A stretch of 64,000 bases of DNA. Source: Clostridiales bacterium (lineage in GTDB: Bacteria; Bacillota; Clostridia; Christensenellales; CAG-138). How positions within the stretch are numbered: position 1 is the first letter of the stretch; every line of letters begins with the position of its first letter. Below are positions 5,171-17,910 of this stretch, piece by piece. The DNA is taken from NCBI GenBank assembly GCA_004557245.1, contig SFEL01000004.1:10821-74820 (forward strand), read 5' to 3'. The notes beneath the pieces are model-generated. The model did not search any database and had not been told where the DNA came from. It saw only the letters and a list, made by a program, of their open reading frames with translations. Position numbers and translations under genes: made by a program.

Positions 5171-6622
5171 ATGCGAAACCTTACCATGATGACGGACCTT
5201 TACCAGCTTACCATGATGTACGGCTACTACAAATTCGGCATGACGAAAAACCAGGCTGTGTTCGATGTGTTTTTCAGGACAAATATGCCAAACAGCGGCT
5301 ATACCATCATGGCGGGCCTTGACACCGCCATAGATTACATAAAGAACATACACTTTGGCCCGGAAGATATAGAATACCTTCGCGGCCTGAAGCTCTTTGA
5401 CGAGGGCTTCCTGAAGGTGCTGAGCGAAATGCATTTTACCGGCGAGGTATATGCCATACCTGAAGGTACGCCCGTGTTTCCCTATGAGCCCCTCGTCCGG
5501 GTAAAGGCCCCTATCATGGAGGCACAGCTGGTGGAGACTACGCTGCTCAATATAATCAACCACCAGACCCTTATAGCCACCAAGGCCAGCCGCGTGGTTT
5601 ACGCCGCAGACGGAGGCGCGGTGCTGGAGTTCGGCCTTCGCCGTGCCCAGGGCCCAGACGCAGGTACATACGGCGCAAGGGCGGCTATAATAGGCGGCTG
5701 CAGCTCTACCAGCAACGTGCTTGCAGGCCAGCTTTACGATGTGGCGATCGCAGGCACTCACGCCCACAGCTGGGTAATGAGCTTCCCAACCGAGCTGGAT
5801 GCTTTCCGCGCATATGCCGATATATTCCCGGATTCCTGTATGCTGCTTGTTGACACCTACGATACTCTCAAGTCCGGCGTACCAAATGCCATAAAGGTAT
5901 TTGATGAGTTGAGGGCCAAAGGCCATAAGCCGGTCGGCATACGCCTCGACAGCGGTGACCTTGCCTATTTCTCCAAGGAGGCCCGCAGGATGCTGGATGC
6001 CGCAGGCTATCAGGATGCGCGCATATTTGCCTCCAGCGATCTTGACGAATACGTTATCCGCGAGTTGAAGGCACAGGGAGCCAGGATAGACGTATGGGGC
6101 GTGGGCACCAAGATGATAACCTCTTATGACTGGCCGGCGCTGGGCGGCGTGTATAAAATGTCCGCCGAGATAGTGGACGGCAAAATGACACCCAAGATAA
6201 AGATAAGCGAGAATCCAGCCAAGCTTACCAATCCCGGATATAAAAAGATATACCGCCTGTACGGCAAGCGGGACAATATGGCGCTTGCTGATATAATCGC
6301 CCTTGACGATGAAACCATAGACGATAGCAAGCCTATCAAGCTGTATAACCAGCATCATACCTATCAGACGAAGGTAATAAGGGACTTTTATGCGAGAGAA
6401 CTTCTGGTGCCGGTATTCGTGGACGGCAGGCAGGTATATGAGAGCCCCGATGCATGCTCAATAAGGGAATACAGCAAAAAGGAGCTGGCTGCATTCTGGG
6501 AGGAATACAGGCGCATACTCAATCCTCACACCTACAAGGTGGATATATCCGATAAGCTTTATAACCTAAAGATGGAGCTTATCCATGAGAACAGGGAAGA
6601 ATATGAGCAAGAGGATTGTTAA
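5171..6622 (+). CDS. pncB: nicotinate phosphoribosyltransferase
   Basis: MRNLTMMTDLYQLTMMYGYYKFGM N-terminus is typical of NAPRTase. The start at 5171 follows a gggga RBS. The upstream 43 codons of the track ORF overlap the lgt tail and are basic junk. Confidence 0.9.
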   Translation: MRNLTMMTDLYQLTMMYGYYKFGMTKNQAVFDVFFRTNMPNSGYTIMAGLDTAIDYIKNIHFGPEDIEYLRGLKLFDEGFLKVLSEMHFTGEVYAIPEGTPVFPYEPLVRVKAPIMEAQLVETTLLNIINHQTLIATKASRVVYAADGGAVLEFGLRRAQGPDAGTYGARAAIIGGCSSTSNVLAGQLYDVAIAGTHAHSWVMSFPTELDAFRAYADIFPDSCMLLVDTYDTLKSGVPNAIKVFDELRAKGHKPVGIRLDSGDLAYFSKEARRMLDAAGYQDARIFASSDLDEYVIRELKAQGARIDVWGVGTKMITSYDWPALGGVYKMSAEIVDGKMTPKIKISENPAKLTNPGYKKIYRLYGKRDNMALADIIALDDETIDDSKPIKLYNQHHTYQTKVIRDFYARELLVPVFVDGRQVYESPDACSIREYSKKELAAFWEEYRRILNPHTYKVDISDKLYNLKMELIHENREEYEQEDC

Positions 6623-7136
6623 GCTGCTTATAGCGGTCTCGGTATGCCTGCTGCTCACGGGCTGTGTGAACACGGGGGCGCATATCGTTCCTTCTGTAAC
6701 CATTCCGCCGGAGTCTACGCAGCCCCCCGAACCTACCCCAAGCCCTACGCCGGAGCCGGTGCAGGTGGAGGAAATGGCGGATCTCAGCAGCGCATACGAT
6801 AAAAACGGATTGCTGATAGTGGGCGAAGAGCACTTCCAGCAGTACATATCCTTCAAAAATATTCAGGTGTACGAGCAGTGCGGGGATACATTTATGGATG
6901 CCGTTGCAGTGAACGAGTACCCGGATACATTGGTATGCGCGCTGAACATACGTTTTTTTGACGAGGATGGCATAGAGATAGCCTCAGGCAGGGTGCAGAC
7001 CAGAGACGGCCAATACGTGCTTCGGCTGGAAAATGGCGACAATACTCTGTTTGCCCAGATAGATACAGACATGACACTTACTGATAAGGAGTTCCGGCTG
7101 GAGTACAGCGAAGATCTGAACGTGCTGCCGGAATAA
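6603..7136 (+). CDS. putative lipoprotein
   Basis: MSKRIVKLLIAVSVCLLLTGC is a signal peptide plus lipobox (LLTGC). It is followed by a Pro/Thr/Glu-rich linker. No family recognised. Confidence 0.7.
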   Translation: MSKRIVKLLIAVSVCLLLTGCVNTGAHIVPSVTIPPESTQPPEPTPSPTPEPVQVEEMADLSSAYDKNGLLIVGEEHFQQYISFKNIQVYEQCGDTFMDAVAVNEYPDTLVCALNIRFFDEDGIEIASGRVQTRDGQYVLRLENGDNTLFAQIDTDMTLTDKEFRLEYSEDLNVLPE

Positions 7137-7149
7137 CGGGAAGATACAG

Positions 7150-7425
7150 ATGGATTACAAAAAGAGCCACAGGATACTTTGGATATGCCTTATAGGGGCG
7201 TTGGCGCTTTCGATAATAAACTGCGTGTTAGCATATATAAACGAAAGTGCTGCCATAGTGGGAATAGCGGTAGCGGTGATAGTGGCAGCTGCCGGCATAA
7301 TACAGGCTATAAGGTTTTTCCGCTGCCCGTATTGCGGGTGCAACCTGTACCTATGGGGCCAGGGGAGAATGCCTGAATACTGCCCGGACTGCGGAGAACG
7401 GCTGGTATTACGCAAAAAGACTTAA
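7150..7425 (+). CDS. small membrane protein with C-terminal zinc ribbon
   Basis: 91 aa with two predicted TM helices, then CPYCGC...CPDCG (CxxC-x17-CxxC). Confidence 0.55.
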   Translation: MDYKKSHRILWICLIGALALSIINCVLAYINESAAIVGIAVAVIVAAAGIIQAIRFFRCPYCGCNLYLWGQGRMPEYCPDCGERLVLRKKT

Positions 7426-7497
7426 ATGGGCTGAATAAAGCAGATGCCGTTCGGGATTGATTTTTATGTATATTGCCGGGCATATATATAAATTTCA

Positions 7498-7526
7498 TTG
7501 ACTTTGAAAATATCATTTGATATAGT
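7498..7526 (+). promoter_or_regulatory. candidate sigma-A promoter of the SCIFF locus
   Basis: TTGACT (7498-7503), 17-nt spacer, TATAGT (7521-7526). This gives a 5' UTR of about 85 nt before the SCIFF ATG. Confidence 0.45.
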
Positions 7527-7614
7527 ATTTTAAGTAATAGTGGACGAATGCGTTTGCTTTGGCGGAAACGCCCGAACATATATTAATCAAACCTGACAGA
7601 ATGGAGATAAAACC

Positions 7615-7761
7615 ATGGAAAGAATCAAGACCATCGAGACCCGCAACCTCTGTGAGAGCGCAAGGAACGGCGGCTGCGGCGAATGCCAGACCTCCTGCCA
7701 GTCTGCCTGTAAGACCAGCTGCGGCGTGGCCAACCAGAAGTGCGAGAATAAGAATAACTAA
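7615..7761 (+). CDS. SCIFF (six-cysteines-in-forty-five) ranthipeptide precursor peptide
   Basis: Hand translation gives MERIKTIETRNLCESARNGGCGECQTSCQSACKTSCGVANQKCENKNN. The core GGCGECQTSCQSACKTSC...C is the SCIFF family signature. GGAG RBS sits 8 nt upstream. It lies immediately 5' of the cognate maturase and is absent from the ORF track because it is under 60 aa. Confidence 0.88.
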   Translation: MERIKTIETRNLCESARNGGCGECQTSCQSACKTSCGVANQKCENKNN

Positions 7762-7776
7762 ACTTGGCAATAAAAG

Positions 7777-7805
7777 TTGCCGCCTGTTTCCAGGCGGCAG
7801 TTTTT
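7777..7805 (+). terminator. hairpin plus T-run between SCIFF precursor and maturase (partial terminator or attenuator)
   Basis: Stem ttgccgcctg/caggcggcag with loop tttc, followed by TTTTT. It sits 16 nt after the precursor stop and 29 nt before the maturase ATG. Confidence 0.65.
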
Positions 7806-7833
7806 ATGTTACAGCCTAATAGGAGAGGCAATA

Positions 7834-9210
7834 ATGGTTCATCAGTATAAGCTCAACGGTTACAACATAGTGCTGGACTCCTGCTCCGGCTCCATACACG
7901 TGGTGGATGAGGTGGCATACGACATAATCGCCATGTATCAGGACAACAGCCCGGAGGAAATAGTGAAGGCCGTATCCGAAAAATACGCCGGCCGCGAAGA
8001 CGTGAAGGAGAAGGACATACTGGACTGCATTGAGGACATAAAGGCCCTGATAGCTGCCGGAAAGCTGTTTACACCGGATACATTCTCGGAGATGGCGGGC
8101 ACCTTCAAGCAGCGCTCGGGCGACGTTATAAAGGCGCTGTGCCTGCACGTCGCCCATACCTGCAATCTCAACTGCGCATACTGTTTCGCCAGCCAGGGCA
8201 AGTATCACGGCGAGCGCGCGCTGATGAGCTATGAGGTGGGCAAGCGCGCGCTGGACTTCCTGATGGAGAATTCAGGCAGCCGCACCAATCTCGAGGTGGA
8301 CTTCTTCGGCGGTGAGCCGCTGATGAACTGGGACGTGGTAAAGCGGCTTGTGAAGTATGCCCGCAGCGTAGAGAAGGAACGGGGCAAGAACTTCCGCTTC
8401 ACCCTCACCACCAACGGCATGCTCATCGACGACGAGGTTATAGAGTTCTGCAATAGGGAGATGAGCAATGTGGTGCTGTCCCTGGACGGCCGCAAGGAGA
8501 TAAATGACGCCACCCGTGTAGATTATGCGGGTAATGGCAGCTATGACCGCATAGTGCCCAAGTTCCGTAAGCTTGTGGAGGCAAGAGGCGGCAAGAACTA
8601 CTATATGCGCGGCACCTTCACCCACGCTAATCCCGACTTTACCAACGACGTATTCCATATGGCGGATCTGGGCTTTACCGAGCTTAGCATGGAGCCCGTG
8701 GTCTGCGCACCGGACGACCCGGCTGCTCTGACCTCCGATGACCTTGAGATAGTAAAGGAGCAGTACGAGATACTTGCAAAGGATATGCTGCGCCGCGAAA
8801 AAGAGGGCAAGCCTATAACCTTCTATCATTACATGCTGGATCTTACGGGCGGCCCTTGCATATATAAGCGCATATCCGGCTGCGGCTCCGGCACAGAGTA
8901 CATGGCAGTCACACCATGGGGGGATCTGTATCCCTGCCACCAGTTCGTAGGCGAGGAAAAGTTCAAGCTGGGCGACATATGGAAGGGCGTTACAAACGAG
9001 GCAGTACGAAGCGAGTTCCGCTCCTGCAACGCATATGCCCGCAGGGAATGCGAGAACTGCTGGGCCAAGCTTTATTGCTCCGGTGGCTGTGCCGCCAACG
9101 CTTATCACGCTACGGGCAGCATACGCGGCGTATATGCTGCGGGATGCGAGCTGTTCAAGAAGAGAATAGAGTGCGCAATAATGATGAAAGTCGCGGAAGA
9201 GGATATGTGA
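7834..9210 (+). CDS. radical SAM/SPASM thioether-forming SCIFF peptide maturase
   Basis: 458 aa starting at ATG 7834, after AGGAGAGG. Radical SAM cluster motif CNLNCAYC. C-terminal SPASM Cys pattern (GCGSG...YPCHQF...CENCWAKLYCSGGC). Adjacent to the SCIFF peptide. Confidence 0.9.
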   Translation: MVHQYKLNGYNIVLDSCSGSIHVVDEVAYDIIAMYQDNSPEEIVKAVSEKYAGREDVKEKDILDCIEDIKALIAAGKLFTPDTFSEMAGTFKQRSGDVIKALCLHVAHTCNLNCAYCFASQGKYHGERALMSYEVGKRALDFLMENSGSRTNLEVDFFGGEPLMNWDVVKRLVKYARSVEKERGKNFRFTLTTNGMLIDDEVIEFCNREMSNVVLSLDGRKEINDATRVDYAGNGSYDRIVPKFRKLVEARGGKNYYMRGTFTHANPDFTNDVFHMADLGFTELSMEPVVCAPDDPAALTSDDLEIVKEQYEILAKDMLRREKEGKPITFYHYMLDLTGGPCIYKRISGCGSGTEYMAVTPWGDLYPCHQFVGEEKFKLGDIWKGVTNEAVRSEFRSCNAYARRECENCWAKLYCSGGCAANAYHATGSIRGVYAAGCELFKKRIECAIMMKVAEEDM

Positions 9211-10541
9211 TGGACACTCCCATACTCGACTTCCTCAGGCAGTATGCCGAACATGACTGGGTGCGCTTCCATATGCCCGGCCATAAGGGCAAGGGCATGC
9301 TGGGTTGCGCAAAATGGGATATAACCGAGGTATACGGCGGAGACGCGCTGTACGAGGCTGAAGGCATTATTGCCCGTAGCGAGCGCAATGCGACGGAGCT
9401 ATTCGGCACGCAGCGTACCTGCTACTCTACCGAGGGTTCCAGCCAGTGCATACGGGCAATGCTGTATCTCGCCCTCAACAACAGGCCGAAGGGCAATTCA
9501 AATGTGATAGTGGCTGCCCGCAACGTGCACAAGACCTTCGTATATGCCGCGGCTCTCCTTGATATAGAGCCGATATGGCTGTGGCCGGAGAGCAGCAGTT
9601 CTCTCTGCGGCTGCCCCGTGACGCCGGCAATACTGAAGGAAACACTTAATAAGCTTGATGCTCCGCCTGCCGCCGTGTATGTAACCAGCCCCGATTATCT
9701 GGGCGAAATGGCGGATATAGGAGACCTTGCCAAAGTGTGCCACGACAGCGGCACGATACTTCTCGTTGACAATGCCCACGGAGCATATCTGAAGTTTCTG
9801 CCAAAATCGCTGGACCCGCTGGACCTCGGTGCAGACATGTGCTGCGCATCGGCCCACAAAACGCTGCCTGTGCTTACAGGCGGCGCGTACCTGCATATAA
9901 GCAGGCGCCTGCCTGCATGCTATGCCGATCAGGCAAAGTCGGCATTGGCCCTCTTTGGCTCCACCAGCCCGTCATACCTTATAATGGCCTCGCTGGACGC
10001 CTGCAACAGCCTTCTGGCGGGAGATTACCCCAAGAGGATAGCGGAATGGGCAGGGAATATGGACTGCCTTAAACGGCGGCTCGGGAGCCGTGGGTGGAAA
10101 GTGCCCCAAAGCGACCCCCTTCGGCTGACCATACGAGCTACGGAGAGCATGAGAGGCACGGACATAGCGAAGCTGCTGCGCGGCGGGGATATAGAGTGCG
10201 AGCATGCGGACGCCGGCTACGCGGTACTCATGACTACGCCCAACAATACTTTAGAAGAGCTGTACAGGCTGGAAAAAGTGCTTGGCGAGTGCCGCAGCAG
10301 ACCAGCAGAGCAAGAGCTGCTGTCCCTTGCCAAGGCGGAAAGGGCTATGTCGGTCCGGGAGGCGGTTTTCCGGCCCCACGAGGTGATACCGGTAAGCGAG
10401 GCATTGGGCCGTATATGCGGAGCTCCCGCCGTGTCCTGCCCGCCTGCGATACCCATTGCGGTGTCCGGCGAGAGGATAGGCAGGGAGGCCATTGAACTGT
10501 TTGAATATTACGGCATAGGTGAAGTAGACGTAGTTAAATAA
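9210..10541 (+). CDS. PLP-dependent Orn/Lys/Arg decarboxylase-family protein
   Basis: MDTPILDFLRQYAEHDWVRFHMPGHKGKG N-terminus and the PLP-lysine motif SAHKTLPVLTGG. The ATG overlaps the maturase stop (TGATG at 9208-9212). Confidence 0.8.
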   Translation: MDTPILDFLRQYAEHDWVRFHMPGHKGKGMLGCAKWDITEVYGGDALYEAEGIIARSERNATELFGTQRTCYSTEGSSQCIRAMLYLALNNRPKGNSNVIVAARNVHKTFVYAAALLDIEPIWLWPESSSSLCGCPVTPAILKETLNKLDAPPAAVYVTSPDYLGEMADIGDLAKVCHDSGTILLVDNAHGAYLKFLPKSLDPLDLGADMCCASAHKTLPVLTGGAYLHISRRLPACYADQAKSALALFGSTSPSYLIMASLDACNSLLAGDYPKRIAEWAGNMDCLKRRLGSRGWKVPQSDPLRLTIRATESMRGTDIAKLLRGGDIECEHADAGYAVLMTTPNNTLEELYRLEKVLGECRSRPAEQELLSLAKAERAMSVREAVFRPHEVIPVSEALGRICGAPAVSCPPAIPIAVSGERIGREAIELFEYYGIGEVDVVK

Positions 10542-10542
10542 T

Positions 10543-10579
10543 AAAAAATGCGGCACAGTTTGAAATGTGCCGCACTTTT
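10543..10579. terminator. bidirectional intrinsic terminator between convergent genes
   Basis: 9-bp stem tgcggcaca/tgtgccgca, flanked by an A-run 5' and a T-run 3'. Confidence 0.7.
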
Positions 10580-10590
10580 ACTATTTCTTG

Positions 10591-11286
10591 TCAGATAAAA
10601 AATTTTCGTTTCACGCTTTCCCTAAGAGGCGGGCAGCAGGCGATGATGATGAGAGTGAGCCCAAGTATCAGACAGCACGCGAGGGGATATATGGACCATA
10701 TCAGGCTGTCGTGGAGGCCAAAGGTGTAATTGAGCAGGTATTCCACCAGCACCATGAAGCCGCCTGTAGCTATGAGAGTGCCGGCGATTATATATAGATA
10801 CCCGCGGCGCAGATAGTACATCAGCGCCACCGCGCCTACGGCGATTATCATGAGTCCCCCGGTGACGGGGAATGCGAAGGACAGGAACCAATGGCCGCCT
10901 GTGGCGAAGTTTATATAGAGCAGGTATAGGCCTGCGGCGATAAAGTCCGCCGCTACGAATATCACGGGTATGGGGCGCCTGAACCACATTGGCAGTACGA
11001 CTATCACATAAAACACCGTCAGCGCGCCGCCTACGTAGCCGGACCAGAGTATTCTGCCGTTGATCTTCCAGTCGCACAGCAGCGACGTAGCGAGGGGCAG
11101 CAGAAACAGCATGGTAAGTATGAACAGCAGGCCGGACCGGCTGGCGGTCTCCTGAGGTTTCCGGTCAACGGGGTACGGCTTTTCGCCGTCCGGACGCTTT
11201 ATATACGGGTGAAACACCACAGTGCCGCAAAGCGGGCACTTTTCCTCGCTGTCGCTCAGTTCAACTCCACATTTTATACAATACAA
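10591..11286 (-). CDS. zinc-ribbon membrane protein (DUF6320-like)
   Basis: 231 aa. N-terminal MYCIKCGVEL...CPLCG zinc ribbon, then about 6 TM helices. It begins 25 nt downstream of the 721-aa gene on the same strand. Confidence 0.7.
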   Translation of the reverse strand: MYCIKCGVELSDSEEKCPLCGTVVFHPYIKRPDGEKPYPVDRKPQETASRSGLLFILTMLFLLPLATSLLCDWKINGRILWSGYVGGALTVFYVIVVLPMWFRRPIPVIFVAADFIAAGLYLLYINFATGGHWFLSFAFPVTGGLMIIAVGAVALMYYLRRGYLYIIAGTLIATGGFMVLVEYLLNYTFGLHDSLIWSIYPLACCLILGLTLIIIACCPPLRESVKRKFFI

Positions 11287-11310
11287 AGCTCACGCCTTCC
11301 TTTCCTTGAA

Positions 11311-13476
11311 CTATGGCTGGTTGCTTTCGGCCTTTACGTGAAGGCCCTGATCCTGAAGCACCCGGAAAAAGTGCAGTTCCAGCTCAGGCTCCGTTATGTT
11401 GCGTATCATGTTAATATACATGGTACCATTATATGACAGCACGCCGCAGTTGTGGGGCGCCCGGGCCTGCACGCCTATTATGAAGTCCATGCGGCTTATG
11501 TAGGGGCGCATAGCCTGTGGTACGGTAACATTGCCGAGGTTTGAGAGGCAGAGGCAGGACTTGCGCTCACCTACCGCGTCAAATACGGCCTTCATGGCGG
11601 CGTTTTTTATGAACAGCGGCATCACCTTTAAGATAAAAGCCTTTTCACTGCTGACGTTGGCGGCTATACGAGTACCCATGAGCTTTGCGGTGCAGTCCAG
11701 CCCCATGCGGTGATGGACTACTGAGCATATCTCCTTAAAACTGTAATCGCCAAGCTGAGGGTCTATTTCGGGGGTGACGTACAGGGCGAAGTTGCGCAGG
11801 GTTCTGCTCGGGAAAAGCTTTCGGAGGTTTACGGGTATAAGCACCTTTACGGGGCGCCTGTGCCTACGGAAATGTACCTTTTCCGCCTGCAGGTCGAGTA
11901 TAGCTTTCATCATAGCAGCGCAAAGGAACTCTGTAGCGGTGACCCCGTACTCCTTTGCCTTGCCGCGCACGGACTCCGCATCCAGCATGAGCGTCACAAG
12001 ATTCAAAAATCCGTCGGGCTCCGGGGTGCCTGAAAGGTGATATGCTGTTTTTTCCCGTCGGCTTGCCCGCGCATCCCCGGCAAACCTGAGAAAGCTGTCC
12101 TCCAGCTCCTCCTCGGAGGGCTCCTCCAGCCTGCCCAGAACACCGTCCTCCTTAGGTACATTGAGGCCGTGCTTCTGGTATAGGTATTCGGCCAGCAGTG
12201 TCTTGAGGAATACCAGCGCGCCGTTGCCGTCGGTTATGGCGTGGAAAAACTCCACGGCTATGCGGTTCTTGTATACTATAACCCTGAAAGCGCACTCGCG
12301 AACTTCTTTAAAGGGCACGTGGGCCAGCGGACAGGCTTTTTCGTCGCGTATGGCGGGAGCCTTGGAAAGCTCCTCGAGGTAGTACCAAAATGTGCCCCTG
12401 CGCAGCCGCACCGCCATGGAGGGGAATCGGCGCACAGTCACATCGAGGGCGGATTGCAGCACCGGCCTGTCTACGGGCTCGCTCAGGGTGGCCGAGAGCC
12501 GGAAAAAGTTGTTCCAGTTCCTGCGCCGGGCGGCGGGGTATATCTTTGCAGCGTTGTCCAGACGCATCCAGCGTAGCTTGCGCTCAGGACAGAGGCGTTT
12601 GTTCAAAAACTCGTTTATCGTGGCAAAATCGGCCTGATTTTCCTTTAACTGGTACAGCACGTAGGCGTGCCAGCGTTCCGGGGCGATGTGCAGACTGCTC
12701 CTGCAGCCGCATTGCAGCAGCCTTGAATGAAGCCGCCGGGAGTCGTCCAGCAATATCTCGTCGCCGCCCGCGAATATGAGAGAGGGCGGCATGCCTGTAA
12801 GGTCGCCGAATAGGGGGGACAGCAGCGGGTCCAGCCTGTCGCGGTCGGTTGCGTAGCACTGGGCGTAAAACTCAAGCACTTCGGCGGTGAGTGAGGGGTC
12901 GTTGTCCCGGTTCGTCTCGTAGCTTTCGCCGGAGCCGGTGAGGTCTGCCCAGGGAGATATGGCGATAACCCCGCAGGGCATAGTCATTTTAAGCTCCTTG
13001 AGCTTTAAGCAGAGGGCGTAGCAAAGGCCGCCGCCTGCGCTCTCGCCGCAGAGCATTATGTGATCCCCACCGTAGCCCTTGCTAATGAGGTATCTGTACG
13101 CCTCCAGCGCGTCGTCGAGTGCGGCGGGGAAGGGGTGTTCAGGAGCGAGCCTGTAGGCGGCACAGAACACGCGCACGCCCTCTTCATCTGCAAGCGTTGC
13201 GGCGAAGCCCTTGGCGTAGTCGAGATCGCCGCAGGTATAGCCGCCCCCGTGCAGGTAAAGTATGACTCCCTGACGGCGCTCGTCCCGCGGTATGACCCAT
13301 GCGCCCTCGAAGCGGTCGAAGGGATGATCACGCACCTTAACGTCCTTTTTATGCATGGCTTCCATAAGCTCGCCAAGCTTGTCCTGTCCACGGCGTATGG
13401 TTTCCAGTGAGCAGCTGGCAACCAGCGGCTTAAAGAAATTCAATTGAGAATGCACAAGTTTTGCCGGCAGTCCCAT
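11311..13476 (-). CDS. fusion protein: HSL-family alpha/beta-hydrolase esterase plus HxxxDG acyltransferase/condensation-like domain
   Basis: N-terminal roughly 300 aa carry the HGGGY oxyanion motif, the GESAGG nucleophile elbow, and the GGDEIL and WHAY catalytic residues. The C-terminal roughly 400 aa carry FHAITDGNG (an HxxxDG motif as in PapA5, WS/DGAT and condensation-type acyltransferases). Confidence 0.75.
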   Translation of the reverse strand: MGLPAKLVHSQLNFFKPLVASCSLETIRRGQDKLGELMEAMHKKDVKVRDHPFDRFEGAWVIPRDERRQGVILYLHGGGYTCGDLDYAKGFAATLADEEGVRVFCAAYRLAPEHPFPAALDDALEAYRYLISKGYGGDHIMLCGESAGGGLCYALCLKLKELKMTMPCGVIAISPWADLTGSGESYETNRDNDPSLTAEVLEFYAQCYATDRDRLDPLLSPLFGDLTGMPPSLIFAGGDEILLDDSRRLHSRLLQCGCRSSLHIAPERWHAYVLYQLKENQADFATINEFLNKRLCPERKLRWMRLDNAAKIYPAARRRNWNNFFRLSATLSEPVDRPVLQSALDVTVRRFPSMAVRLRRGTFWYYLEELSKAPAIRDEKACPLAHVPFKEVRECAFRVIVYKNRIAVEFFHAITDGNGALVFLKTLLAEYLYQKHGLNVPKEDGVLGRLEEPSEEELEDSFLRFAGDARASRREKTAYHLSGTPEPDGFLNLVTLMLDAESVRGKAKEYGVTATEFLCAAMMKAILDLQAEKVHFRRHRRPVKVLIPVNLRKLFPSRTLRNFALYVTPEIDPQLGDYSFKEICSVVHHRMGLDCTAKLMGTRIAANVSSEKAFILKVMPLFIKNAAMKAVFDAVGERKSCLCLSNLGNVTVPQAMRPYISRMDFIIGVQARAPHNCGVLSYNGTMYINMIRNITEPELELHFFRVLQDQGLHVKAESNQP

Positions 13477-15402: not shown

Positions 15403-15793
15403 AATGTACAGATAAATTCCAGTTTGCAGGAGTGTTGAGTCATCTTCAAAAACCCTTTAGGAACGAAAGGGCGCACTTCTATACTCTCCTGCCGGGAGTA
15501 TCAGTGCGTACAGTCAAGTCAGCAAGCTGTCGGGGCGGAGCTTCATTCTCTGTCAGCAGAAGAAAACCGGCTGACTTCGAATGTTGCGTCACCTCGTTCC
15601 GTCAAGACGGCTGCACCCCCTTGCGCCGCTAAAGCGGCTATAAGGCGAGGGCGAGGACATTAACGATGTGGCTTAATCCGACAAAAGGCAAACCAAAAAG
15701 CGATATTTTTATGTTGTTCATGGGGGCTTTTTAATTTATAATGTGAAAAATATGGCGCGCGATAAAACCGCGGCACTTATAGGGAGAATTGCC

Positions 15794-16786
15794 ATGAAAA
15801 CCATATTGGTTCTGGGCGGCGCCGGCTACATCGGCAGCCATACCGTGTACGAACTCATAGACGGCGGATACGACGTAGCTGTGGTGGATAACCTTGAAAC
15901 GGGATTTATAGAGGCGGTACACCCAAAGGCGAGGTTCCATAAGGGCGATATACGGGACAAGGCCTTCATAGATTCCGTATTTGACGCCGAAAAGATAGAC
16001 GCAGTGATACATTTCGCCGCTAATTCCCAGGTGGGCGAGAGTATGATAAAGCCCCTGAAATACTATGAAAACAACATGGGCGGTACACGAACCATGCTGC
16101 AATCCATGGTAGAGCACGGGGTGAAGTACATAGTATTCTCATCTACAGCCGCTATATACGGCGAGCCTGAGCGCGTGCCAATAATGGAGAGCGACCCGAC
16201 CCACCCTACCAACTGCTACGGCGAAACCAAGCTTTCCATGGAGCGAATGTTCCACTGGGCCTCTGTGGCCCACGATATACATTTTGTGGCTCTGCGCTAT
16301 TTCAACGCCTGCGGGGCGCACCCCAACGGCAATATAGGCGAAGCTCACGACCCCGAAACGCACCTTATACCAATAGTCCTGCAGGTGCCTAACGGACAGC
16401 GGAAGACCGTGAACATATTCGGCGACGATTACGGTACTCGCGACGGTACATGCGTGAGGGATTACATACACGTATGCGACCTCGCATCGGCCCATGTGCT
16501 GGCGGCTGAGTACCTTATGCACGGCGGCAAAAACGACGTGTTTAACCTTGGAAACGGCGTAGGCTTTACCGTAAGGGAGATAGTGGACGCGGCGGAAAAG
16601 GTGGTAGGTAAGCCCATAGCGTGCGAGATTGCATCCCGCAGGGCGGGCGACCCCGCGCAGCTTGTAGCTTCCAGCGAAAAGGCTAAGACGGTGCTTGGCT
16701 GGAAGCCGAAATACGACGATATAGATACAATAATCTCCACGGCGTGGCGCTGGCACAGCGCCCACCCCTGCGGCTACAAGGCTTGA
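15794..16786 (+). CDS. galE: UDP-glucose 4-epimerase
   Basis: MKTILVLGGAGYIGSH Rossmann N-terminus and the YGETK catalytic motif. The start at 15794 follows AGGGAGA. Confidence 0.9.
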   Translation: MKTILVLGGAGYIGSHTVYELIDGGYDVAVVDNLETGFIEAVHPKARFHKGDIRDKAFIDSVFDAEKIDAVIHFAANSQVGESMIKPLKYYENNMGGTRTMLQSMVEHGVKYIVFSSTAAIYGEPERVPIMESDPTHPTNCYGETKLSMERMFHWASVAHDIHFVALRYFNACGAHPNGNIGEAHDPETHLIPIVLQVPNGQRKTVNIFGDDYGTRDGTCVRDYIHVCDLASAHVLAAEYLMHGGKNDVFNLGNGVGFTVREIVDAAEKVVGKPIACEIASRRAGDPAQLVASSEKAKTVLGWKPKYDDIDTIISTAWRWHSAHPCGYKA

Positions 16787-17910
16787 TGAGGCGGCATATG
16801 GATGAAGAGTATCGCTTTTCCGCTCCCGGACGTGTAGAGATAGGCGGCAACCATACCGATCATCAGCACGGCCGTGTGCTTGCAGCCGCCATAAACCTCG
16901 AGTCAAAGGCCATAGTGCGCAGGAACTGCGAGGGTAAAATACGCGTGATTTCAGAGGGATATGAGCCTGTAGAGATAGACGTATGGGATCTTGGGGTGCA
17001 CGAGGAGGAGAAGAACACCACTGCGGCGCTGATACGGGGCGTAGCAGCGGCATTTGCAGAGCGCGGCTGTAAGCTTGACGGCTTGGATGCGAAGGTAAGC
17101 TCCACGGTGCTGCCCGGCTCCGGCCTTTCCAGTTCAGCGGCGTTTGAGGTGCTCATTGGCCGCATATTAAACGGTCTGTTCTTTGAGGATAAACTTACGC
17201 CGGTTCAAATAGCACAGATAGGCCAATATGCCGAGAACGTGTATTTCGGAAAGCCCTGCGGCCTTATGGATCAGACTGCCTCAAGCGTTGGCGGCCTGGT
17301 CTATATGGACTTCAGGGACCCGGCGCATCCGGTGGTGGAAAACGTGGAGTATGACTTTGACGGCTGCGGTTATACACTTTGCATAATAGACAGCGGTGCC
17401 GACCACGCGGGCCTGACGGAGGATTATGCCGCCATACCCGGCGAACTGCATAAGGTATGCCGGGTCTTCGGCAGGGAATACCTGAGAGAGGTGGACGAAA
17501 GCGAGTTTTATGCAAGACTTCCCGAAGTACGCAAGGCGGCGGGGGACAGGGGGGCGCTCCGTGCCATGCACATATTTGACGACAGCAGGCGCGTAGCGGA
17601 GCAGTTGGCGGCGCTTCGAAATAACGATTTTGACCGCTTTCTTAAGCTTGTGAACGACTCTGGCGAGTCCTCATGGAAGTATCTGCAAAACGTAATCCCC
17701 TCAGGCAGCAGGGAGCATCAGAGCATGGCTTTCACTATAGCCCTTTGTAAGAAACTGCTTAATGGCCGCGGCGCGGTACGCGTACACGGCGGCGGCTTTG
17801 CCGGAACGGCGCTTGCCTTCGTTCCGGACGGCGAGTTCAATAAGTTCCGGGATGGCATAGAGAGGGTGCTTGGCGCGGGCTGCTGTCATAAGCTCAGCAT
17901 AGCGAAATAA
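16786..17910 (+). CDS. galK: galactokinase (GHMP kinase family)
   Basis: APGRVEIGGNHTDHQHG galactokinase signature variant and the GHMP ATP motif PGSGLSSSAA. ATG at 16786 overlaps the galE stop (TGATG). An alternative start is 16798. Confidence 0.85.
   Translation: MRRHMDEEYRFSAPGRVEIGGNHTDHQHGRVLAAAINLESKAIVRRNCEGKIRVISEGYEPVEIDVWDLGVHEEEKNTTAALIRGVAAAFAERGCKLDGLDAKVSSTVLPGSGLSSSAAFEVLIGRILNGLFFEDKLTPVQIAQIGQYAENVYFGKPCGLMDQTASSVGGLVYMDFRDPAHPVVENVEYDFDGCGYTLCIIDSGADHAGLTEDYAAIPGELHKVCRVFGREYLREVDESEFYARLPEVRKAAGDRGALRAMHIFDDSRRVAEQLAALRNNDFDRFLKLVNDSGESSWKYLQNVIPSGSREHQSMAFTIALCKKLLNGRGAVRVHGGGFAGTALAFVPDGEFNKFRDGIERVLGAGCCHKLSIAK

Follow-up and report, generated by a model that had tools for sequence, protein, structure and literature searches.

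SCIFF peptides have been known as a family since 2011, and the structure of one of their maturases has been solved. Among the closest described systems are CteA/CteB, the thermocellin system of Acetivibrio (Clostridium) thermocellus (PDB 5WGG/5WHY), and Tte1186a/Tte1186 of Caldanaerobacter subterraneus, the first SCIFF pair to be characterised in vitro. Tte1186 carries three [4Fe-4S] clusters with the ligand sets C104/108/111, C344/362/413 and C400/403/409/432 (PMC10177961), and Tte1186a receives a single Cys-Thr thioether (PMC8326336). The Clostridium sensu stricto systems of Chen et al. 2020 belong to the same two-gene family and are, according to a review (PMC8102284), the only SCIFF systems for which there is genetic evidence of function. 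PapA/PapB (freyrasin) and QhpD stand for homologous radical-SAM/SPASM maturases whose thioethers are likewise to carbons other than the alpha carbon; PapA has six CX3D motifs, with Cys-Asp Cbeta links.

Here, we analysed a 64,000-nucleotide stretch of DNA (the window) from a gut bacterium of the Clostridia. We identify positions 7615-7761 and 7834-9210 as a SCIFF precursor gene (scfA) and the gene of its thioether-forming radical-SAM/SPASM maturase (scfB). The overall explanation, including the expression and cross-linking steps that we infer, has in our estimate a probability of about 0.96. The features discussed below are as follows.

7498-7526, + strand: candidate SigA/sigma-70-type promoter with an extended -10 (TTGACT, 17 nt, TG-n-TATAGT), ~88 nt 5' of the scfA ATG
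7603-7606, + strand: putative scfA ribosome-binding site GGAG, in the conserved block cAGAATGGAGAt, 8 nt 5' of the ATG
7615-7761, + strand: scfA, 48-aa SCIFF precursor MERIKTIETRNLCESARNGGCGECQTSCQSACKTSCGVANQKCENKNN (TIGR03973, PF13165, NCBI identity, purifying selection)
7778-7805, + strand: intrinsic-terminator-like hairpin between scfA and scfB, TGCCGCCTG-TTTC-CAGGCGGCA then GTTTTT (fold and conservation)
7822-7828, + strand: putative scfB ribosome-binding site GGAGAGG (sequence)
7834-9210, + strand: scfB, 458-aa radical-SAM/SPASM thioether-forming SCIFF maturase (TIGR03974, Pfam, CteB alignment)
9210-10541, + strand: 443-aa PLP-dependent Orn/Lys/Arg-decarboxylase-family protein (Pfam PF01276, PF03711)
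10544-10579, no strand assigned: bidirectional terminator-like hairpin closing scfA-scfB-PLP (found by the scan on both strands)

Precursor and maturase genes

The scfA product matched TIGR03973 with 79.4 bits (E = 1.3e-22; cutoff 50), in an alignment that runs from position 2 to position 43 of the 43-position profile, and Pfam PF13165 with 81.1 bits (cutoff 27). Its core cysteines at positions 21, 24, 28, 32, 36 and 43 have the SCIFF spacing C-x2-C-x3-C-x3-C-x3-C-x6-C in a product of 48 residues (~45 in the family), and the core GGCGECQTSCQSACKTSC, followed by x-VANQ-x-CE, is identical to that of CteA. As in the CteA/CteB system, the precursor gene precedes the maturase gene. The two are separated by 72 nt from the scfA stop to the ATG at 7834, a distance inside the 500 bp from a radical-SAM maturase gene that curators of the family use as their criterion for a SCIFF precursor (PMC5300114). 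A previous reading of this DNA from its letters alone (the sequence-only reading) had proposed the same pair of genes with a 73-nt gap, which is one nucleotide too long; its placing of GGAG 8 nt 5' of the ATG and its 48-codon translation were exact. A search of the PDB with the peptide gave chance matches only.

Compared with CteA, the precursor is slightly longer (48 versus 46 aa), its leader is MERIKTIETRNL rather than MKHIKILNGSTL, and it has Cys instead of Lys at position 13 and Gly instead of Thr, the acceptor mapped in vitro, at position 37. The extra Cys13 and the polar NKNN tail had been singled out as traits of this copy. Both are indeed present, but neither is peculiar to it: Cys13 occurs in 113 of the 116 nearest homologues and in 81 of 121 representatives at 50% identity, and short K/N/E-rich tails are the rule in the clade.

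The same DNA holds an overlapping 86-aa ORF in another frame (7559-7819, TTG start), which could in principle be the true gene, with the 48-codon ORF a chance overlap. It is the longer of the two and the one shown in the first ORF list, and a public gene call, P0032, includes its C-terminal residues; P0032 is, however, a frameshift fusion with a SCIFF start. The 86-aa ORF has no NCBIfam or Pfam match, its Ala/Pro/Arg-rich composition is what GC-rich codons typically give when read out of frame, and its frame is broken by stop codons in 65 of 78 related loci. Changes between these relatives concentrate instead at the third position of the SCIFF codons (177, 144 and 1175 base differences at positions 1, 2 and 3), with 999 synonymous versus 296 non-synonymous codon changes. 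Judged from this substitution pattern, the scfA frame is the one under purifying selection. The 86-aa alternative, which the sequence-only reading had dismissed as spurious, is effectively refuted and retains a vanishingly small probability.

ScfB scored 765.3 bits against TIGR03974 (cutoff 425, E = 1.9e-230) and matched the Pfam families Radical_SAM, Fer4_12 and SPASM, the last with 23.2 bits (cutoff 21.5). Its match to Pfam PqqD (21.7 bits, residues 12-69) lies just under the cutoff of 23.4; the N-terminus, however, aligns without a break with the RRE-containing N-terminus of CteB; the RRE of CteB has been described (PMC8326336). Over its full length, ScfB is 53% identical to CteB (PDB 5WGG; 558 bits), and all ten Fe-S ligand cysteines of CteB (ligand list from PMC10177961) are kept, in a pattern that is also that of Tte1186. 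The CX3CX2C motif C110-NLN-C114-AY-C117 aligns with CteB C104/C108/C111, and the putative ligands of auxiliary clusters 1 (AC1; C350/C368/C419) and 2 (AC2; C406/C409/C415/C438) align with those of CteB. The CNLNCAYC motif and the C-terminal Cys cluster had already been recognised from the letters, and the proposed check, a lack of SPASM auxiliary-cluster cysteines on alignment, turned up no missing cysteine.

It is conceivable that ScfB is instead a related radical-SAM/SPASM maturase of other chemistry, such as a PapB-type Cys-Asp ranthipeptide synthase, a QhpD-like enzyme, an alpha-carbon sactisynthase or a 'ScfB-related orphan'. Indeed, it also matches several of these families, and SCIFF chemistry itself was at first misassigned as sactipeptide-type (PMC8326336). 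The scores are, however, well under the respective cutoffs for the exception model NF040492 'not_ScfB' (558 against 855 bits), PapB (275 against 340) and QhpD (265 against 453), whereas that for TIGR03974 is far above its own. Furthermore, ScfB is no orphan, having a genuine SCIFF precursor 72 nt upstream, and the CX3D motifs of PapA are absent from this precursor. We therefore consider another chemistry very improbable and retain the assignment as a true ScfB.

The E-values of the two curated models show that the observation is more than chance, and the HMM check proposed by the sequence-only reading places both genes far above their cutoffs. The locus is nevertheless a textbook one, ordinary and previously annotated. 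Identical proteins are named 'six-cysteine ranthipeptide SCIFF' and 'thioether cross-link-forming SCIFF peptide maturase' in NCBI. Entries there with the same or nearly the same sequence carry the labels Eubacteriales, Oscillospiraceae or Clostridiales, all consistent with Clostridia, and more than 5,400 peptides are homologous to the scfA product. No further SCIFF-like ORF was found within the window. The peptide had been described as unlisted, which is correct for the first ORF list because of its length cutoff; public contigs carry a gene call for these 48 residues, with the tag SCIFF. As an identification the result matters little, its use being that of a positive control: a reading without tools found a 48-codon gene masked by an ORF-length cutoff.

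Acceptor residue of the predicted thioether

According to two reviews, SCIFF maturases form one Cys32-Thr thioether, to Thr37 in vitro and to Cgamma of Thr34 in vivo (PMC8326336, PMC8172795). Even for CteA, published accounts differ as to which residue is the acceptor. In the peptide described here, residue 37 is Gly, as it is in 236 of 237 sampled relatives, and Thr34 is present, being invariant in all 237. The Cys32-Thr37 link of Tte1186a is therefore impossible here, leaving Thr34 as the sole experimentally mapped acceptor to be retained and Cys32-S-Cgamma-Thr34 as the predicted link. On this alignment, Gly37 means that, in this clade, one of the two positions described for the cross-link is ruled out; family membership is unaffected. 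That Thr37 is naturally missing and Thr34 strictly conserved across a large gut clade bears on the conflict between mapping in vitro and mapping in vivo. Both the position and the number of cross-links in the product remain predictions by analogy.

If ScfB works as its homologues CteB and Tte1186 do, its N-terminal RRE domain would bind the leader (residues 1 to ~18, with an IKT-I/L motif), and SAM would be reductively cleaved at the [4Fe-4S] cluster of the CX3CX2C motif (C110/114/117). The resulting 5'-deoxyadenosyl radical would take a side-chain hydrogen from the acceptor residue, and the thiolate of the donor Cys, bound to auxiliary cluster 1 at its open iron site, would form the non-alpha-carbon thioether, with the second electron leaving via auxiliary cluster 2. 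The expected product would carry the link between Cys32 and Thr34.

Expression signals

The candidate promoter at 7498-7526 scores 10/12 with a TG extension. Since counts from scans of this single window equal the shuffle expectation (for promoter matches, 4 found versus 3.3 expected), support for the promoter and terminators comes solely from conservation across loci. Of 78 related loci, almost all have the same TTGAC[T/A]-17-TGnTAnAAT element ahead of scfA, at a median distance of ~75 nt, and the block around the ribosome-binding site is conserved in an alignment of 64 leaders. A conserved structure or riboswitch in the 5' leader was considered and rejected: a hairpin occurs in many leaders, but their folding energies were no better than those of shuffled sequences (median z = -0.7, with 6/64 below -2).

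The hairpin between scfA and scfB has an extended A-tract/U-tract stem (7765-7811) and a minimum free energy of -30.3 kcal/mol (z = -4.71), with none of 200 shuffles equally stable; the scan reports it on the minus strand, and so it could act both ways. When a perfect stem is strictly required, a GC-rich hairpin followed by a T-run lies 3' of scfA in 57 of 80 distinct relatives; inspection by eye shows one in nearly every relative. The stem arms have 33 distinct sequences. The closing hairpin at 10544-10579 precedes a convergent DUF6320 gene (10591-11286, minus strand). When 6500-11500 was scanned against Rfam at E <= 1, every match was below threshold (sraL, 25 bits; L20_leader, 30 bits; mir-290); these matches overlap terminator hairpins and were treated as chance.

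Taken as signals, these elements suggest the following course of expression. The strong extended -10 promoter would give an mRNA with a leader of ~80 nt, from which scfA would be translated from its GGAG into the 48-aa precursor. The U-tract hairpin at 7778-7805 would then halt most transcripts, so that the precursor message exceeds that of the enzyme, and would thus act as a leaky terminator, setting how much precursor is made per maturase. Transcripts that may read through would encode ScfB and the translationally coupled PLP protein and end at 10544-10579.

Physiological role and the adjoining PLP gene

The physiological role of SCIFF peptides had been called unknown by the sequence-only reading, a statement that is partly outdated. 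Knock-outs in Clostridium beijerinckii (Chen et al. 2020) altered sporulation and agr quorum-sensing genes, according to two reviews (PMC8102284, PMC8326336). Those systems are from another order, being of Clostridium sensu stricto, whereas the present one is from Oscillospirales-type gut bacteria. Many radical-SAM thioether peptides, such as the sactipeptides and ruminococcin C, are antibiotics (PMC8326336), and a secreted, bacteriocin-like antimicrobial must therefore be weighed against a physiological or regulatory peptide. The SCIFF locus has no protease or exporter gene, and neither the operon nor its surroundings contain a leader peptidase, an ABC exporter or an immunity gene. The core is nearly invariant across thousands of genomes, unlike that of diversifying bacteriocins, and reviews count the broad distribution in Clostridia against an antimicrobial role. 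By analogy with the knock-outs, a physiological or regulatory peptide acting in sporulation or quorum-sensing circuitry is the more likely product, and an antimicrobial appears unlikely, with only a small probability.

The locus also differs from that of CteB in its context. CteB lies in a yajC-DUF3792 ... HD-secDF neighbourhood, whereas here scfB is followed by a gene of the PLP-dependent decarboxylase family. The ATG of this gene shares bases with the stop codon of scfB (TGATG), and translation of the two is therefore probably coupled. Its product matches PF01276 (E = 1.4e-34) as well as PF03711, is named 'amino acid decarboxylase' in NCBI, has PDB entry 2X3L as its best structural match (117 bits) and conserves the PLP-lysine motif S-x-HKTLP. 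The gene lies directly 3' of scfB in 68 of 75 informative related loci, at a spacing of -7 to +49 nt; these belong to a set of ~80 nearest relatives with scfB at least 81% identical, and their common ancestry inflates the adjacency count. That the PLP gene merely forms part of a larger housekeeping block was considered and rejected, its downstream neighbours being variable and often convergent.

One may ask whether, in this clade, scfA, scfB and the PLP gene work together as a single system, with the PLP enzyme acting on the SCIFF peptide or product, or making a small amine co-regulated with SCIFF. Besides the start/stop overlap and the intact catalytic-lysine motif, the adjacency persists even where the PLP protein is only 44-60% identical, and the genes up- and downstream of the trio are not conserved, so that the trio moves as a unit. 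However, the close kinship of the 80 loci weakens this count, SCIFF occurs without an adjacent PLP gene in CteB-type genomes (Acetivibrio, Ruminiclostridium, Pseudoclostridium), CteA is modified by CteB alone according to the literature, and the PLP family is present in organisms without known SCIFF. The closest structure, 2X3L, is from Staphylococcus aureus. We know of no PLP decarboxylase that acts on a RiPP. A functional link is thus doubtful.

No report of a conserved scfA-scfB-PLP decarboxylase operon was found in the literature searched. For work on SCIFF physiology in abundant gut anaerobes, the operon gives a starting point that can be tested. We regard as speculative, and on balance improbable, the wider proposal that in Oscillospirales-type gut Clostridia SCIFF is a three-gene unit with a functionally tied PLP enzyme and that Gly37 marks Cys32-Thr34, rather than Cys32-Thr37, as the relevant cross-link. 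If true, the three-gene unit and the Cys32-Thr34 link would together open a new approach to SCIFF peptides, whose biology is still poorly understood.

A SCIFF precursor and its maturase

The sequence-only reading took a 48-codon ORF starting at ATG 7615, with GGAG 8 nt upstream and an 86-aa ORF overlapping it in another frame, for an unlisted SCIFF precursor next to a thioether maturase. All of these elements are present in the sequence, and the family models, the match to CteB and the cysteine alignment bear out both the observation and its interpretation.

Features of the locus (window positions)
7498-7526, + strand: promoter, -35 and extended -10 (TTGACT, 17 nt, TGATATAGT), kept in relatives
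7603-7606, + strand: scfA ribosome-binding site, GGAG, 8 nt 5' of ATG 7615
7615-7761, + strand: scfA, 48-codon ORF from ATG 7615 to stop TAA, product MERIKTIETRNLCESARNGGCGECQTSCQSACKTSCGVANQKCENKNN
7778-7799, + strand: hairpin TGCCGCCTG-TTTC-CAGGCGGCA, then a T-run, directly 3' of scfA
7834-9210, + strand: scfB, 458 aa, ATG 7834, stop 9208-9210, with CNLNCAYC and a C-terminal cysteine cluster
9210-10541, + strand: PLP gene, 443 aa, ATG overlapping the scfB stop
10544-10579, both strands: terminator (bidirectional hairpin) 3' of the PLP gene

The HMM checks proposed for both proteins were run. The peptide MERIKTIETRNLCESARNGGCGECQTSCQSACKTSCGVANQKCENKNN scored 79.4 bits (E = 1.3e-22) against TIGR03973, 'six-cysteine ranthipeptide SCIFF' (curated cutoff 50), and 81.1 bits against Pfam PF13165 (cutoff 27), while the scfB protein reached 765.3 bits against TIGR03974, 'thioether cross-link-forming SCIFF peptide maturase' (cutoff 425). 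We rejected an assignment of scfB to the ScfB-related orphans or to PapB- or QhpD-type enzymes, since TIGR03974 was passed and the protein scored under the other curated cutoffs: 558 bits against the exception model NF040492, 'ScfB-related orphan' (cutoff 855), and far too low for PapB, QhpD and the remaining related maturase models. The scfB protein also matches CteB of A. thermocellus over its full length (PDB 5WGG/5WHY, 558 bits), the native CteB from that genome being 53% identical in a global alignment. In CteB, the [4Fe-4S] ligands are C104/108/111 in the radical-SAM (RS) cluster, C344/362/413 in auxiliary cluster 1 (AC1) and C400/403/409/432 in auxiliary cluster 2 (AC2) (PMC10177961). 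All ten align with cysteines of scfB (RS C110/114/117, AC1 C350/368/419, AC2 C406/409/415/438), confirming the C-terminal SPASM cysteine cluster. The scfA-scfB spacer is 72 nt, one less than the 73 reported earlier.

More than 5,400 homologues of the peptide were found at E <= 0.001. The identical 48-aa sequence is present on at least 1000 contigs and stands in NCBI as MCI6633925.1 and others, 'six-cysteine ranthipeptide SCIFF [Eubacteriales bacterium]'; the exact scfB protein is MDY4398835.1, 'thioether cross-link-forming SCIFF peptide maturase'. Among public contigs with an identical maturase, each of the four listed (one being the NCBI MAG GCA_019417405.1) has the 48-aa gene called with a Pfam SCIFF match. 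The peptide was thus 'unlisted' only because it fell below the first-stage ORF-length cutoff, but it had already been called and named publicly, and the locus is a standard, already annotated member of a well-described family rather than a new one. No second SCIFF-like ORF was found in the 64-kb window. Some metagenomic ORFs (P0121, P0122 and P0001) carry two tandem SCIFF units in one reading frame, P0122 as two ...GCGECQTSCQSACKTSCGIANQ.. repeats; these are either double precursors or assembly or gene-call artefacts.

The competing frame is the 86-aa ORF at 7559-7819, which opens with TTG. We counted differences from the window over scfA codons 1-44 in 78 related loci (77 distinct DNA sequences). 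They fell 177, 144 and 1175 times on codon positions 1, 2 and 3, with 999 synonymous against 296 non-synonymous codon changes; third positions varied at 43 of 44 codons, first positions at 18 and second positions at 17. The 86-aa frame is interrupted by stop codons in 65 of the 78 loci and found no match in NCBIfam or Pfam profile searches. This interruption and the third-position bias in the scfA frame rule it out comparatively as the translated frame, and as far as the comparative data reach, it is spurious, as had been proposed. In the public protein P0032, a SCIFF start runs into the C-terminal residues of the 86-aa ORF (…IRITKLGNKSCRLFPGGSFYVTA). This gene call is frameshifted, its DNA being nearly the same as the window's, and exemplifies how the spurious frame can enter annotation.

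Promoter, leader and intergenic hairpin

Within the one window, the promoter scan performed at chance level (4 sites found, 3.3 expected). Among the 78 related loci, an element of the TTGACT-17 nt-TGATATAGT type recurs in nearly all, its median distance 5' of scfA being about 75 nt, and downstream of it lies a conserved cAGAATGGAGAt block containing the scfA ribosome-binding site. The scfA leaders (7527-7614 in the window; 64 loci) are about 65-90 nt long, vary between promoter and ribosome-binding site and often bear a GC-rich hairpin of differing sequence. Their folding was no better than that of shuffled sequence (median z = -0.7 over these loci) and the Rfam scan gave nothing above threshold, so a leader RNA element was dropped; the hairpin may stabilise the 5' end or have no role.

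The hairpin between scfA and scfB folds at -30.3 kcal/mol (z = -4.7), none of 200 shuffles being equally stable. Under a strict criterion, 57 of 80 distinct relatives have a GC-rich hairpin with a T-run after scfA; judged by eye, nearly all do. The stem arms come in 33 different sequences; it is therefore the structure, not the sequence, that is kept. We read this hairpin as a putative leaky intrinsic terminator that would yield more precursor than maturase mRNA, an arrangement common in RiPP operons.

The PLP gene and the operon's neighbourhood

The third gene encodes a member of the Orn/Lys/Arg-decarboxylase family (PF01276, E = 1.4e-34; best PDB match 2X3L, 117 bits) that keeps the HK-T-L-P PLP-lysine motif and is named 'amino acid decarboxylase' in NCBI. 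It starts -7 to +49 nt from the scfB stop in 68 of 75 informative related loci, a count inflated by common descent because the 80 loci compared (L005-L084) are the closest relatives. Adjacency holds where the PLP protein falls to 44-60% identity, with scfB still above 81%. Genes flanking the trio are not conserved on either side and a terminator follows the PLP gene; the three therefore behave as a unit. No adjacent PLP gene is found at scfB in A. thermocellus, Ruminiclostridium josui or Pseudoclostridium thermosuccinogenes, where the order is (queA-tgt-)yajC-DUF3792-scfA-scfB-(HD or hexapeptide protein)-secD-secF. This CteB-type context is likewise conserved but different, being housekeeping and next to protein-export genes. 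No report of scfB-PLP linkage was found in the literature searched, and a genuine functional tie of the PLP gene to SCIFF seems rather unlikely.

Several neighbouring features were also seen. Two genes stand just 5' of the promoter: the farther one (6585-7136, +) encodes a 183-aa product whose signal is lipoprotein-like (…LLLTGC), and the nearer one (7150-7425, +) encodes a 91-aa membrane protein that has a zinc-ribbon-like CPxC…CPxC motif at its C-terminus. Both lack a family assignment, and their conservation does not extend beyond the nearest relatives (L001-L005, L009). A sub-threshold Rfam L20 leader match (10536-10624, -; 30.3 bits, gathering score 58.7) falls on the bidirectional terminator hairpin 3' of the PLP gene and is most probably a chance hit. 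L001, a strain-level variant of the contig, has genes for a phage-type integrase and an HTH protein at its positions 15715-17377, about 6 kb 3' of the operon. In L002-L004 the same place is taken by epimerase and galactokinase genes, which suggests a polymorphic mobile-element insertion. A long ORF unrelated to the SCIFF locus encodes a second radical-SAM protein, with CX3CX2C (DGCDNRCTYCAIP) at about 49217 (+), that resembles an enzyme of the methylthiotransferase type.

Peptide residues and the predicted cross-link

By homology to CteB and to Tte1186 of Caldanaerobacter subterraneus (PMC8326336, PMC10177961), the N-terminal RRE of ScfB would bind the leader. The radical-SAM cluster would then generate a 5'-deoxyadenosyl radical that takes a side-chain hydrogen from the acceptor, predicted to be Thr34 Cgamma; the Cys32 thiolate, as donor on the open iron of AC1, would form the thioether, and AC2 would relay the second electron. 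Genes for a protease, an exporter or an immunity protein are missing near the operon, and thousands of genomes share an almost unchanging SCIFF core; both points speak against a bacteriocin role. The only genetic data come from a disruption in C. beijerinckii, with sporulation-gene expression down and agr expression up (Chen et al. 2020 via PMC8102284).

Cys13 and the NKNN tail had been singled out as marks of this copy, which they are not. CteA, the A. thermocellus precursor, has Lys13 whereas the window's peptide has Cys13, and the position is A, T, N, E or K in other clades; judged from the homologues, however, Cys13 is a clade trait (113 of 116 nearest homologues, 81 of 121 representatives of 50%-identity clusters). 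Short, variable, K/N/E-rich tails are general among SCIFF homologues. Residue 37, which the sequence-only reading had passed over, is more informative than either. It is Gly in the window's peptide (codon 7723-7725) and in 236 of 237 sampled relatives, whereas CteA and, per reviews, the Caldanaerobacter precursor Tte1186a have Thr37; Thr34 (codon 7714-7716) is invariant in all 237. The acceptor of the Cys32 thioether was Thr37 in vitro and the gamma-carbon of Thr34 on co-expression in E. coli, a discrepancy that the reviews call unresolved (PMC8326336, PMC8172795). Gly has no side-chain carbon, so peptides of this clade cannot form a non-alpha thioether at residue 37; we infer that Thr34 is the sole published acceptor kept there. 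This natural Gly37/Thr34 pattern bears on the disagreement between the in vitro and in vivo acceptors; it and the conserved PLP partner are two modest leads.
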